Below are positions 23,378 through 28,802 of a stretch of 64,000 bases of DNA, piece by piece (position 1 is the first letter of the stretch; the number at the start of each line of letters is the position of its first letter). The translations under genes were made by a program, and so were the position numbers. The notes under the pieces are model-generated. The model saw nothing but the letters and a program-made list of their open reading frames with translations, did no database searches and had not been told where the DNA came from. Source of the DNA: Nitrosopumilus sp. (GTDB lineage: Archaea > Thermoproteota > Nitrososphaeria > Nitrososphaerales > Nitrosopumilaceae); the NCBI GenBank assembly GCA_965205675.1, contig OZ242186.1, forward strand, positions 416,001 through 480,000, written 5' to 3'.

Positions 23378-23472
23378 ATTCCAAGTCAACAATCGATAGA
23401 GTAACTCAATACACTGCCATGAATATGTCTGGAGAAGGATACATTCCAAGTCAACAATCGATAGAGTAACTC
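23378..23472. repeat. 30-bp direct repeat separated by 35-bp unique insert
   Basis: ATTCCAAGTCAACAATCGATAGAGTAACTC at 23378-23407 and 23443-23472. Confidence 0.9.
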
Positions 23473-23734: not shown

Positions 23735-24470
23735 TTATTTGACATCGTATTCTTCTCCTGTCTGCTCATCAATAACTCTTGTTCCTTTCTCTGGCATCTT
23801 TCTTGCATATGCCTTTACAGGGGTCTCAAGATTATCCCAGTCAAGTGACATGTGTGGCTTTATGTGGTTGTACCAGTGGACCAGCTCATCAATGGTGCCA
23901 AACCATTTCTGCTTTCTCTGAATCTCGCCGTGAAATCTTTCGAGCTTGCCATTGGTTTGAGGATGGTTCACTCTTGCCATGATGCGTTTTATTCCAAGTC
24001 TAACCAGTTCTTGCTCAAACTGTGATGCTCCTTTTCTCTTGTATTCTGATTGGTTTGCATAAAATTGGGAGCCATGATCAGTTAGAATTGATGCAGGCCT
24101 ACCGTGCTTTGCAATTGCCTCATGTAATACTACAAGTGCGTTATCTGTTGTTGCCTCTGCAAACACTCCATGAGAAACGATAAACCTTGATGCGTCATCC
24201 TGGTAACACAGAAACCATCTGCCATCGTCTAACTGCTTCCAGTCAGTATGCCACATGGAGTTTGAATATGTCCTTTCATATCTAACCCACTTTCGCCTTC
24301 TCCTCTTCTTTGGCTGATCTTCTGCCAACCCCTCATCTCTCATAATTTTGTGTATGGTATTGTGAGGTATGTGTGTTCCAGTGGTATCAATTATTTTCTC
24401 CAGGAATACTGCAGAACACCTGAACTTTTCAAATGTAGACTGGACAGTCTGTACCATCTGCTCTGTAATT
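23735..24470 (-). pseudogene. IS481 transposase, C-terminal integrase-core part
   Basis: WHTDWK, LTDHGSQF, PQTNGKLERF. Confidence 0.88.
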
Positions 24471-24519
24471 ATCCATGTGAATTGTTTTTATACATTTCCT
24501 CTCTTTCCATACATCAGGG

Positions 24520-24680
24520 CATGGCTTTCGCTAGAGAATGGTTTCAATCAAAAGATGGCAGACATGTATCCATACGAGACTATTCTCTCAATGCTATCTT
24601 CATCCTAGTTAGGATTGTTCGCAGTTATTAGACGAGGCCTTGTCCCTCAATAATTACAACGCGACTTGCAGTCCTAACTA
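24520..24680 (-). ncRNA. Putative bridge/seek RNA of IS110-B (ends approximate)
   Basis: Scaffold shared with IS110-A RNA; loop TGTAATTAT equals target flank 24464-24472; second loop ATGGATA equals element end. Confidence 0.75.
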
Positions 24681-25787
24681 TAATTTTGTACAAATTCTCT
24701 CCTCTCCTTTAACATCCAATAAATCACCCTCAGGATCTTTGATGCACCAGCTACTGCAGCTTTGGATGATCCTCTTTTCTTTTTAATGCGATTGTAAAAT
24801 TTTGTAATGTCACTATCCTTGGCATGAATTGCATGAGTGTGTATGCATTCTGTTAGAACCCATCTCAATGTCATGCTTCCCCTTTTTGTTATTCTGCCAT
24901 GGTGTATTGTATCTGCAGAGTTTCTAACTGATGGTACAACTCCTGCATATGCACACAGTTTGTGAGAATCATTGAATCTCTCAATATCTGCAATCTCTGA
25001 TGCAATGACAAGCGAAGAATAATGCCCAATTCCCGGAATCGAGTTTATCAAAATTGCATCAGGATTAACTTTTACAGCAGCATACACTTTGGAATTAATC
25101 TCTGCAATCTGTAAATTAAGGTGGCTGATTTGTTGCAAGAATCCGTCTATTCTGTAATCTCCTAGTGCCTTGAGTCTTCTGTTGTATGTTTCAGTGAATG
25201 TAACTCCTGGAATCCTGATTCCTTCCTGTAACAATATTCCATGAACTGAATTCTTGACAGATGTTCTCCATTGGATTAGTTTTTTCCTATATCTTACAAG
25301 CTGTCTTTGTTGTACAATCTTTTTGTCTGGAACATAACATGTGGCAATGTATCCTCCTCGTAAAAGATCTGCCAATATCTTGGCATCAATCTTGTCTGTT
25401 TTCTTTTTTGATGTAGCAATTGCCTTTGTCAAATATGGGTTTGAGAGTGTGACGTTTTTGTATCCCAAAGTATCTGTGAGAAATCGATACGTGTCATACC
25501 AGACTGATGAGGATTCCATTACAATATTTGCAGAAATTGGTATTTTTGCAAAATGCTTTTTGATGGATTCATGAGTGTTATCCACTTTGTCATTTTGTAA
25601 TACTTTGCCTGCATCATCCATTTATTACTTGAAGAAACTTCTTGTGCAGGTCAATGCCCACAAACATGCCTTTCTTTGGATTTTTTCTAATCTGTTTGTT
25701 TGTAATCTTTTTTGGAGCCGAGTATTTACGAACCTTGGAACTAGATTCATTTTTTATGCTATCTGATTTCCTTGCTTTCTTATTCAC
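24674..25787 (-). pseudogene. IS110-B recombinase, frameshifted near 25625
   Basis: GIDLHK in one frame, then VMESS, KTDKIDA, SIPGIG, YAGVVPSVRNSA in another. Confidence 0.85.
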
Positions 25788-25859
25788 ATATCCATGTGAA
25801 TCCCTTTTAACTATTGTCGGTATTTTTGCCATATTAATTACAGCTTACGCTAATACACT

Positions 25860-26008
25860 CATACTTTCAATCACAGATGAAACCAGACACATATCCATTC
25901 GGGGTTCTCCCCCAGTACCATCTTCATCCATTTATTAGGTGAAACCGCGGTTATAGTTTCGAGGTATTATGCATCCTCAATGTGAAAACGCGGCCAAACT
26001 CCTAACTG
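25860..26008 (-). ncRNA. Putative bridge/seek RNA of IS110-A (ends approximate)
   Basis: Guides TTTTCACAT and AAACTAT match flanks TATTCACAT and TAACTAT; donor loop ATGGATAT. Confidence 0.75.
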
Positions 26009-26022
26009 TAATGTTTTACAAA

Positions 26023-26700
26023 TTATTGATGACATTGAACAAATTCTCTCCTCTCTTTTAGCATCCAATATATGACACGCAATAACTTTGATGCAGCAGC
26101 AACTGCTGCCTTTGAGGTCCCTCTCTTTTTCTTAATGCGATTATAAAATTTTGTAATGTTGCTATCTGGTGCGTATCTAACATGTGCATGAATTGCCTCC
26201 ACTAGCAACCATCTTAGCATGGTGCTTCCTCTCTTTGTAATTCTTCCGTGATGTATTGTATCTGCAGAATTTCTCACCGATGGAACAATCCCTGCATATG
26301 CACATAACTTGTGAGAATTTGAAAATCTACTAATCTCTGCAATTTCTGAGAATATGCTCAATGCAGTGTATGGTCCAACTCCAGGTGTGGATATCAAAAT
26401 ACACACACCAGGATTATCATTTACCATGCGACGTATCATGGAATCTATCTTTGCAACCTCCTTTTTGTGAAATTTTATGCTTTGTAGGTACGAATCTATT
26501 CTATAACTCTCCAATTTTCCAAGTGCACGTATGTGTTCTGAGGAAAATGGTGTTGCTTTGATATGGATTCCCTCCTGTAGTGTAATACCATGTATGGAAT
26601 TCTTCATCTTTACAATAATGCGTATAATCTTGTGTCGATGTCTTACAAGCTGTCTGTATTGCACAATTGTGTGATCTGGCACAAATGATTCTGCAATGTA
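26023..26700 (-). pseudogene. IS110-A recombinase, C-terminal part
   Basis: STPGVG, YAGIVPSVRNSA; joins in frame to the N-terminal part (RGGY|IAESFVP). Confidence 0.88.
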
Positions 26701-27798
26701 TACTCTCTAACAAAATTTTATGATCTGTTGATCTGATTTATTTTACCAAATGCCATATTGATCAAAACATTACACATCAAACCATGAATAATCAAAAATT
26801 AATTCAAGCATACAAAGATGAAAAGAACGTCAAGGTAAAAGAAAGGCTATTTTTGATAAAGCGAGTATTACTTGAGAACCAAATTGCATCACATGTTGCA
26901 AAGAATCTTGGACGTGTACGTTCATGGGCATACAAATGGTTAGATAGATTTGCAGAATATGGAATTGCAGGACTGCAAGACTTGCCTAGAACTGGCAGAC
27001 CAACTAGTATACCAAAAAAGAAACTAGTCAGCATTCAACTACAAATTGCAGAAAAACAATCCGGCTGGAGTGCAAAGCAAGTGATGAATCTGATTTATCA
27101 AAAATCAGGTGTAAAATATCATGAGGTTCATGTGTACAGATTATTACACAAATGGGGATTTGTTCCAAAGGTTGCAGCAAAGAGATTTGTAAATTCAGCT
27201 AGTGTTGAGGAAAAACTCTGGTTTAAAAAAACTCCAAAGAACAAATAGCCTCAAAAATAGCAAAAGGCTTTACAGTTCTTGCACAAGATGAGTCCATCTT
27301 TACTGCTGATGCGATATTTAGAAAAAAGATGTGGGTAAAGAAAGGAACCCGTCCAATTATTCTAGTAAACGGGTCACATCAAAAAACAATCATTTTTGGT
27401 GCACTGACTCATGACGGCAGGCAATTATTCAGACAATATGAAAAATTTGATCAGTACTGTTTTTTGGATTATCTAAAGGAATTGCACAGAAAGTTTGGCA
27501 AGATTCTAGTCTATGTAGACCGAGCACCACAACACAGATCAAAACTAGTACAAAAATATCTTGATGAGAATGCAGATGATGTTCTATTGAATTGGTTTCC
27601 AAAAGGCTCACCACAGCTCAATGCAGTTGAGGAAGTATGGAAGCAAGGAAAATACAATTTGTTGGTGTCACAGTATCAACCATCTCTAAGTAATCTGAAA
27701 AATAACATCTCCAAATATTACAGAACCAGACGATTCAATTTAGACATTCTCAAGTATATGCAACGAGAGGATGGTTGACGAACTTATGTTAGGAAGTA
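26701..27798 (+). mobile_element. IS630-family element
   Basis: TA target duplication at 26699-700 and 27799-800; TIR TACTCTCTAACA / TGTTAGGAAGTA. Confidence 0.92.
26784..27778 (+). CDS. IS630 transposase (orfA HTH 26784-27248 + orfB DDE, joined by frameshift at TTTAAAAAAA ~27222-27231)
   Basis: GLQDLPRTGRP; QDES, VDRAPQH, SPQLNAVEEVW. Confidence 0.88.
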
Positions 27799-28214
27799 TA
27801 TCCTCCTCGTAGCAAATTTGCAAGATGGTACGCATCAATTTTATCAGTCTTTTTGAGTGATGATGCTATTATCTTTGTGTTGTATGGATTAGATAGTATA
27901 ACATCAAGATGTAATTTGTCTGTCATGTGTCTATAAAGGCCATACCAGACAGATGATGACTCTAAAACATATTTTGCGTTCTTTGGAATTTTGGATGTAA
28001 TTTTGCTAATAGCAGAAAAATCACTGGAAATCTTTTTGTTAAATAATAATTTGCCAATCTCATCTACTGCTGCCACCTGTACAGAGTTCTTGTGAACATC
28101 CAATCCTACAAACATCAAATATTTTTTTTCAGGAAGGGTAGTGTGTTTGTTTGCATTTCTTACTTTCTTGATACGAATGCAAGTACCATCTAATTTCCTA
28201 GCTGATTTTGGCAC
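27799..28214 (-). pseudogene. IS110-A recombinase, N-terminal DEDD RuvC part
   Basis: GLDVHK, VLESS, KTDKIDA. Confidence 0.88.
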
Positions 28215-28228
28215 ATATGGTTATAGTT

Positions 28229-28410
28229 ATTCCCTTTGGCCTTCCAGGCTTGCCTAGAATCGGAATTGCACCAGTACGGCGATACCGTGAGTAGAGTTTC
28301 TGCACCCACCGAACAGATATCTTCATGGATGAGGCTACGTCTGCGTTCTTGGCACCATCCTCTTTTGACTTGATTATCCAGAATATCTGGATTGGATCTA
28401 ACTTTTGCAT
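28229..28410 (-). pseudogene. IS481 transposase, N-terminal HTH part
   Basis: NADVASSMKISVRWVQKL..KPGRPKGI, in frame with ITEQMVQ after removing IS110s. Confidence 0.85.
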
Positions 28411-28802
28411 AATCTTGTGATTCTTTCCTCTTTTCCAAACGTATCTTGACTTTAGTCTGGAAATGATGGGGTGAACTAATTTGAGGATAATAGAATTGTA
28501 TTCGTTGGAGTAACATCATACATTTGAGAGAATGATTTTGGGAAAATGTTTTATGATGTCATGAGATACGAGATGATGGTGCTGAATCACAACTGCACAA
28601 ATCAACTGGGATTTCATATCAAAATCTACTGACATTTTTGTAAATGCGTGCCCGAGATTGCATCTGCAAGAATAGTATGGTGTATAGCAGCAACTGTCTG
28701 TTTTTAAATTTTGTTGCATCTACTCCTGCAAATATTGCATCCGAAGATATTATTCCAATAAATCTACTAATTGCAACATTATCCAATTACAACTCAAAAC
28801 TA

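Follow-up and report, generated by a model that had tools for sequence, protein, structure and literature searches.

Predicted seek/bridge-type guide RNAs in IS1111-type elements of a Nitrosopumilus chromosome, including one element that appears to target the left ends of its siblings

Two IS110-family elements of IS1111 architecture, here called A and B, lie head to tail on the minus strand of a 64,000-nt stretch of a Nitrosopumilus sp. chromosome (GenBank assembly GCA_965205675.1, contig OZ242186.1, positions 416,001 to 480,000; this whole stretch is the window, and coordinates are those of the window unless marked "genome"). Together they occupy 24473-28228, and both are inside an rve transposase gene. 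A predicted RNA of ~150 nt with two internal loops sits downstream of each DEDD recombinase gene, and we consider it very probable (about 0.87) that these are genuine guide RNAs of the seek/bridge type working in an archaeal chromosome. The anatomy of the elements, their empty sites, the covariation of the RNA structure, and the covariation of the loop arms both with the flanks and with the element ends were observed directly. Matches of the loops to the flanks go far beyond chance, as follows from the recurrence of the same RNA at 30 places in the host genome and from permutation of arms against flanks. The features of the pair and of the interrupted gene, with Pfam E values and bit scores of a covariance model (R1) where available, are as follows.

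23735-28519, minus: interrupted rve (IS481-like) transposase gene, whole extent, in the pieces 28190-28519 and 23735-24457
23735..24457, minus: C-terminal part of rve, the host target of the composite (Pfam rve, 1.1e-11); in frame with 28190-28519 once A and B are removed
24464..24472, minus: right junction of B, dinucleotide AT (24472-24471) and right target AATTACA (24470-24464); exact reverse complement of the arm at 24658..24650
24473..24537, minus: right end of B, with conserved tail, TATA-like box ~20 nt from the end, inverted repeat ATTCACAT and extension GG
24538..24683, minus: predicted guide RNA of B, two-domain, seek/bridge-like (R1, 163 bits)
24658..24650 and 24632..24623, minus: loop 1 of B, 5' arm TGTAATTAT and 3' arm TCTAATAACT
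24597..24594 and 24573..24567, minus: loop 2 of B, 5' arm ATAG and 3' arm ATGGATA
25789 down to 24473, minus: element B (PF01548, 3.8e-19; PF02371, 3.5e-21)
24674..25789, minus: recombinase gene of B, frameshifted (open reading frames [ORFs] 24674-25621 and 25614-25832), with left repeat ATGTGAAT at 25789..25782
25790..25791, minus: AT crossover dinucleotide between the right end of A and the inverted repeat of B; identical junction after 9/9 copies of A
25792..25860, minus: right end of A, with tail, TATA-like TTAAAAGGG, inverted repeat and GG
25861..26011, minus: predicted guide RNA of A (R1, 108 bits)
25988..25980 and 25959..25949, minus: loop 1 of A, 5' arm TTTTCACAT and 3' arm AAACTATAACC
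25921..25918 and 25898..25892, minus: loop 2 of A, 5' arm ATGG and 3' arm ATGGATA
28222 down to 25792, minus: element A, split by an IS630-like insert
26023..26698, minus: recombinase gene of A, C-terminal part (ORF 26023-26682; PF02371, 1.1e-21)
26699..27798, plus: IS630-like element at a TA inside the gene of A (ORFs 26784-27248, helix-turn-helix, and 27329-27778, DDE_3, 7.6e-20)
27799..28222, minus: recombinase of A, N-terminal part (ORF 27789-28214; PF01548, 3.5e-14), with left end AACCAT + ATGTGCC (28222..28210)
28223..28228, minus: AACTAT, B's own left extension, parted from B's repeat by A; its last two letters are A's crossover dinucleotide; matched 6/6 by A's 3' arm AACTAT
28229..28519, minus: left junction, AT (28230-28229) and left target GGGA (28234-28231), then the N-terminal part of rve

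Element ends, empty sites and recombinases

Filled and empty sites in the host genome (2.01 Mb, one contig) and in public contigs gave the general layout flank-AT-[AAC(T/C)AT + ATGTG...CACAT + GG]-AT-flank. Three uninterrupted paralogous sites in the host genome read CCAATAATTACA and the filled form reads CCA-AT-[AACTAT ATGTGAAT ... ATTCACAT GG]-AT-AATTACA, while stand-alone copies of B follow the pattern flank-AT-AACTAT-ATGTGAAT. At the site in the window itself, public contigs from 4 runs and 3 studies joined 24468 directly to 28227, with four letters common to both sides, and carried an uninterrupted rve gene (..GGGAATAATTACAG..); a search of the rve paralogues in the host genome for this empty site returned only copies of 78% identity. 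The comparison assigns to the element both the 6 nt AAC(T/C)AT left of the repeat and the GG right of it, and makes AT the crossover dinucleotide. These 6 nt, the GG and one AT put ten letters between the repeats of a would-be circle, matching the "7 + 3" extension rule given for IS1111 elements in the sections of PMC11187229 cited here. Two other boundary models were rejected: the first (flank AATAACT, core AT, element from ATGTG, with the 10-nt AACTATAACC as A's left target) was ruled out by the empty sites, and the second, in which A recombines at the second AT of ATAT, failed to reproduce the left junction.

The first-pass annotation of the window had proposed an AT core for these elements. 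This holds for the donor, whose dinucleotide is AT in both A and B, but among relatives the target dinucleotide may also be CT, GT or TT. The main family of a related genome, G039, illustrates this: its eight empty sites read TTTGCT|TGATTCATAC and its filled sites TTTG-CT-[AACTAT...CACATAG]-AT-TGATTC, so that the target dinucleotide is CT, unlike the donor AT. The target of that family sits in a repeated sequence of ~45 nt (..ATAGGCATAAAACATGTTCTTTGCTTGATTCATAC..), which was seen empty at 8 places (loci L091, L095, L100, L122, L126, L134, L136 and L140), and a short repeat family thus serves as landing pad.

Perfect inverted repeats were short, 8 bp in B (ATGTGAAT / ATTCACAT) and only 5 bp (ATGTG) in A. 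Subterminal repeats of IS1111 elements span 7-17 bp in the cited part of PMC11208160 and are usually 11-13 bp in that of PMC11187229; B falls inside the 7-17 bp range and A below it. From stop codon to right end the non-coding stretch measured ~200 nt in B and ~230 nt in A, and the 5' non-coding part less than 130 nt. An outward-facing TATA-like box (TATAAA, TTTAAA or CTTAAAA) stood 16-20 nt before the right end in 48/54 unique right-end tails, in the window at 24490-24500 and 25805-25815. Since an archaeal TATA box lies ~26 nt upstream of the transcript start, transcripts from this box would start just past the right end and would then run across a circle junction or, in tandems, into the downstream element; the box may be the archaeal counterpart of the junction promoter in bacterial IS110/IS1111 circles.

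Both recombinases carry PF01548 and PF02371 (in two pieces in A), and an intact B protein scored 228.8 bits against the NCBIfam family NF033542 "IS110 family RNA-guided transposase" (cut-off 140) and found ISCro4 (4.8e-12) and IS621 (2.9e-9) as relatives in PDB, in agreement with the earlier IS110 assignment. The segments GIDLHK, MESSS, KTDKIDA and P....S of this protein align with the corresponding ISCro4 residues; we take the D, E, D, D and the C-terminal Ser to be the catalytic positions. Outside the family the nearest homologues were haloarchaeal genes named "IS110 family transposase" (33-37% identity). The host is archaeal, as had been supposed: its ribosomal RNA operon scored 1467 bits with the archaeal small-subunit model, and the archaeal small- and large-subunit models survived clan competition. 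The host genome holds full copies of A (n = 9), B (n = 10) and a third family, C (n = 4), together with several diverged or truncated copies and hybrids. Two of the ten B copies, among them the one at genome 615808-617127, have an intact 371-codon frame and the other eight, the window's included, are 2 nt short near codon 55; for C the 371-codon frame is present in 3/4 copies. Two further repeats were noted nearby. The right flank of one C copy (genome 1157550-1157639) is an 86-nt sequence with at least 16 identical copies in the genome, which is another repeat or small mobile element. Just past the 3' end of rve, at 23378-23472, a 30-nt direct repeat occurs as two perfect copies 65 nt apart (35-nt spacer; 0 expected by chance), with no third copy in the window; it could represent a miniature repeat-spacer unit or belong to the end of the rve element.

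Predicted guide RNA scaffold and loop arms

The 3' non-coding regions of A and B share the scaffold AGTTAGG..CGCG-[arm]-TGAGG..CCTCG-[arm]-AAC.GCG..CCTAA..GGATGAAGAT..hairpin..ATGGATA..TGTCTG..TGATTGAAA, as the first-pass annotation had recognized. RNAalifold folded 11 variants into two stem-loop domains, each of which has an internal loop capped by a hairpin; compensatory changes occur in 8 of the 30 pairs. R1, which was built from these 11 RNA variants, matched 13/101 genomes, the host included: 10/60 of the same genus and one each from two other families of the order; G039 alone gave 24 RNA matches. A protein-based scan of 185,579 species' genomes found 77 distinct loci, in records titled Nitrosopumilus, Nitrosopumilaceae, Nitrososphaerota or Cenarchaeum except for two loci in one record titled "bacterium", and R1 recovered 55 further RNAs from 61 of the 77. 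Across 47 distinct sequences, 96.6% of cells were paired, compared with 34-45% when partners were slid by 1-3 columns; changes on both sides occurred in 13 pairs compared with 3.8 in shuffles, and 0/500 shuffles equaled any of five measures. The alignment of these 47 sequences was fitted to the model, which favors the structure somewhat.

Loop 1 is the predicted target loop, and its 5' arm is the reverse complement of the right flank. In B the arm at 24658..24650 is an exact reverse complement of the minus-strand flank 24472..24464 (9/9), in line with the earlier observation for this guide. Further matches were 10/11 in the G039 main family, 9/9 in both the A-like and the C-like elements of G039, 10/10 at L036 (dinucleotide GT) and L083, and 9/9 at L108 and L113. 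For the whole set, 114/124 matches had a recognizable arm and right end, the remaining 10 being left out for want of a recognizable hairpin or right end, which left 45 distinct arms in 91 unique arm/flank pairs. An exact match of ≥7 nt was reached in 45/91 own pairs and in 93/7494 pairs with a different arm; the mean longest match was 5.59, against 3.67 ± 0.14 when arms were permuted among families, and 0/2000 permutations reached 5.59.

The 3' arm of loop 1 has the layout [about 4 nt of left flank][dinucleotide][AAC(T/C)]. At 47 unique sites with 14 arm variants, the six positions of this arm that vary were compared with the six letters before the element, leaving out matches whose left end was not found or was preceded by another element's right end. 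The mean match was 4.13/6 to the own flank and 2.43 to foreign flanks (0/5000 permutations reached 4.13), and a match of at least 5/6 occurred at 24/47 unique sites compared with 73/1956 foreign pairs. The dinucleotide in this arm (AT, GT, CT or TT) follows that of the target. The second guide of B had been described as matching only AAT; this is so for the copy in the window (TCTAAT against left flank GGGAAT, 3/6, with AAT alone shared), but four stand-alone B sites match at 5, 5, 3 and 6 of 6. The proposed check by covariance model, homologues and guide-flank covariation thus found loops that track their insertion sites.

Loop 2, the predicted donor loop, refers in the same way to the element's own ends. 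ATGGATA (24573..24567 in B, 25898..25892 in A) equals the right-end extension followed by AT and A, so its previously noted match to the element end stands. This 3' arm repeats the right extension together with the dinucleotide and varies as they do (ATGG|AT, ATAG|AT, ATGG|GT, AAGG|TA and ATGG|CA). The 5' arm reads ATAG in elements whose left extension ends in CTAT and ATGG in those where it ends in CCAT, the exceptions being hybrid elements. The donor-loop states are few and their sequences phylogenetically correlated, so that we treat them as supporting evidence and not as proof.

Element A at the left ends of its siblings

To the right of all nine A copies in the host genome come AT and then the left inverted repeat of a sibling, which is of B type in eight cases (5 full, 3 truncated) and of C type in one; to their left stands AAC(T/C)AT, the left extension of the resident element. 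The 5' arm of A matches the sibling left-end site ATGTGAATA at 8/9 positions here (arm 25988..25980, flank 25782-25790) and at 9/9 in G039, and the 3' arm AACTAT matches the resident's extension at 6/6 in four and 5/6 in the other four of 8 unique sites. A lies at a sibling left end again in five locus rows: four (L103, L107, L117 and L145) are from another genome, which has A before B, and the fifth (L066) is the G039 element, in which an A with 88% identity precedes a C-like element. The arms and neighbors indicate that A targets the boundary between extension and inverted repeat, AAC(T/C)AT|ATGTGAATA, in the left ends of B- and C-type siblings, and with A aimed at B's left end its position directly upstream of B in the window is explained. 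The first-pass annotation had read A's guides as matching its own flanks, and as matches both survive (8/9 as above; 6/7 for AAACTAT, 25959..25953, against TAACTAT, 28229..28223), but the flank of the first guide is B's inverted repeat and not host DNA, and TAACTAT is the left extension of B in displaced position. A single scaffold carrying different guides that follow their own sites accordingly describes A, B and dozens of further variants, but the window's pair does not address two host sites. Elsewhere in the window, at 6749-6866, lies another B-type left-end fragment (86.6% identity over 118 nt), preceded by ..GACAACTAT.

It is also conceivable that the A-B tandems descend from one ancestral composite copied as a unit, either by recombination or by a transposition that uses B's RNA with the left end of A and the right end of B, and not from targeting of B by A's RNA. 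Five A-B tandems have the same internal junction, and B's arms fit the sequences on their outer sides; the left flank is common to three tandems, one of which differs in its right flank. The latter, at genome 996436-999101, has the rve gene on its left and, compared with the window and with genome 927344-930009, a different repeated locus on its right, which points to recombination between insertion sequence (IS) copies. Hybrids with an A left part and recombinase, a B-like RNA and right end, and a displaced AACTAT upstream also exist (v754 at genome 754384-755684, L137, L111 and L115); the 5' arm of their loop 2 mismatches their own left extension, and they are best read as deletion products of A-B tandems. 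Copying as a unit is nevertheless improbable as the origin of the tandems, since A also occurs at the left ends of three truncated B elements and one C-type element with other outer flanks, the arrangement recurs in G039 and in another genome, and both arms of A match exactly this site.

No copy of A in the host genome has an intact gene: 8 have small lesions at one TA site, and 1, that in the window, has the IS630-like insert at the same TA. Six of the eight uninterrupted copies have an additional G (as does the hybrid v754) and the other two have two different 2-nt deletions. The window copy is in frame without the extra G, and reading across the joint 26698|27799 yields one open 365-codon frame, as predicted when removal of the IS630 element was suggested as a way to rebuild the protein; public contigs from 4 runs skip exactly these 1100 nt (26698->27799). 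The host genome contains 8 near-full copies of the IS630-like element. The lesions look like footprints of recurrent insertion followed by imprecise excision, or else like a hot spot of mutation. A programmed frameshift was considered and ruled out, since both the in-frame site and the 365-codon frame are present at 9/13 A-type left ends from other genomes. A more speculative picture, which we hold to be doubtful, is that A is a hyperparasite of its own family: its RNA would home it to the left ends of B and C, where it splits the resident's end and places a TATA-like box ~20 nt upstream of the resident's recombinase gene, and, having no intact gene here, A would spread on the B or C recombinase in trans with its own RNA. 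More generally, an RNA-guided IS that can be aimed at sibling ends would generate tandems, hybrids and rearrangements in IS-rich archaeal genomes.

Proposed mechanism, alternatives and comparison with known systems

By analogy with seekRNA and bridge RNA systems, from which we infer transcription, the RNA-protein complex, the circle and catalysis, the element would leave as a circle with the junction ...CACATGG-AT-AAC(T/C)AT-ATGTG... and the recombinase would be bound by the RNA. The donor junction would sit in the internal loop of domain 2, whose 5' arm AU(A/G)G would pair with C(T/C)AT on the top strand of the left extension. The target would occupy the internal loop of domain 1, with the 5' arm pairing to the top strand right of the crossover and the 3' arm to the bottom strand left of it, dinucleotide included, followed by 4 nt identical to the element's own left extension; strand exchange would take place at the dinucleotide. 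On this scheme B would be aimed at ..TCTA-AT-AATTACA.. The label "programmable recombinase" previously attached to these elements likewise rests on analogy.

The conserved 3' region could instead act as DNA: the recombinase would bind it as a structured element end, and the matches between arms and flanks would reflect pairing of DNA with DNA or recognition of the sequence by the protein. The region does lie within the element's right end, where transposases usually bind DNA, and the RNA is here a predicted one. However, four G-U pairs that hardly vary, together with many changes from G-C to G-U (at one pair in 13 sequences), fit the recombinase-sense strand and not its complement, where the same helices would contain A-C mismatches, weak in DNA. 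The architecture and the order of matches are also the same as in the RNAs that copurify with IS1111 transposases (PMC11187229, in the part drawn on), and the arms pair with opposite strands on either side of the crossover, like those of bridge RNAs in the corresponding part of PMC11208160. We therefore regard action as DNA as very unlikely. Another reading, in which the matches are coincidental repeats (inverted or direct) of AT-rich DNA or else target-site duplications misread as guides, was tested and is next to negligible: short AT-rich matches are common and mismatched pairings average 3-4 nt, but none of the 2000 and 5000 permutations reached the observed means, empty sites show only the dinucleotide repeated (in the window, within 4 shared letters), and the matches change with the flank over more than 40 arm variants in several genomes.

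Several observations weigh against guide RNAs of the seek/bridge type. In the window neither recombinase gene is intact, since B's is frameshifted and A's is split by the IS630-like insert, and the existence of the RNA, the position of its ends and its binding by the protein are all inferred. At 14/91 sites the longest 5'-arm match was just 3 nt, mostly in diverged, truncated or rearranged copies, and the register of this arm relative to the dinucleotide shifts by 1-2 nt between families; the 3' arm matched at most 2/6 letters at 8/47 sites, four of which are recombinant hybrids. The RNAalifold structure also offers the 3' arm's conserved AAC a partner within the RNA, a GUU, so that the match of this AAC to the element's left extension is not secure. 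Rfam held no family matching these RNAs (just two sub-threshold, unrelated matches), and R1 found nothing better than E 1.7 in the 3' regions of two haloarchaeal homologues and one from Sphingobium, the nearest ones.

Seek or bridge RNAs encoded 3' of the gene in IS1111-type elements are already published (PMC11187229 and PMC11208160), NCBIfam names the family "RNA-guided transposase", and a new kind of system is not revealed here. Our literature search found no paper describing these Nitrosopumilus elements or RNAs, although ISfinder-wide supplementary tables may already list archaeal elements with predicted RNAs. In the portions of the sources cited, 93% of the IS1111 elements of ISfinder were predicted to carry a bridge RNA within their right end (PMC11208160), 662 archaeal IS110 recombinases were counted (10.1101/2024.06.21.599552), and one Nitrosopumilus genome was noted in a survey as very IS-rich (PMC13343696).

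The closest known systems are the IS1111 elements with a 3' seekRNA (ISEc11, ISPa11, ISKpn4 and ISPst6), which, as far as the cited sections of Siddiquee et al. 2024 (PMC11187229) describe them, share with A and B the DEDD recombinase, the long downstream non-coding region, subterminal repeats with asymmetric extensions totaling 10 nt (7+3 or 6+3 bp in IS1111), a top-strand match 5' of a bottom-strand match that meet at the insertion point, and natural retargeting by swapped matching bases on a conserved scaffold. In contrast to those elements, the host here is an archaeon, with relatives in Nitrosopumilus, Nitrosopumilaceae and Cenarchaeum, and the system is predicted from genome sequences; the repeats are short (8 bp in B and 5 bp in A, versus the usual 11-13), the C-terminal motif is G..P....SA and not SG/TG, the RNA has no sequence-level match to anything curated, and a TATA-like box stands where the bacterial junction promoter does. 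The bridge RNAs of IS621 and ISCro4 (the cited part of Durrant et al. 2024, PMC11208160; PDB 8wt6 and 9t56) are likewise bispecific, with target- and donor-binding internal loops that each pair with one strand to one side of a core dinucleotide and with the opposite strand to the other, and act with homologous recombinases. Their RNA lies 5' of the gene with the reverse arm order, whereas the predicted RNA here is 3', the 3' arm of its target loop adds 4 nt equal to the element's own left extension, and the target dinucleotide may differ from the donor AT (CT, GT or TT). An IS1111-type element that targets the end of another mobile element resembles A in its type of target; A, unlike that element, appears to target siblings of its own family, between left extension and inverted repeat, with head-to-tail tandems and recombinant hybrids as the outcome.

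RNA structure, empty sites and covariation together suggest that the IS1111 seek/bridge RNA mechanism, so far characterized in bacteria, also operates in Nitrosopumilaceae archaea. The more interesting sides of these elements are the sibling-targeting A, the mismatch between target and donor dinucleotides, which suggests that the two need not be equal, and the natural retargeting series, in which at least 45 5'-arm and 14 3'-arm variants on one scaffold of ~150 nt, with a recombinase of ~330-370 amino acids, could guide design rules for AT-rich targets.

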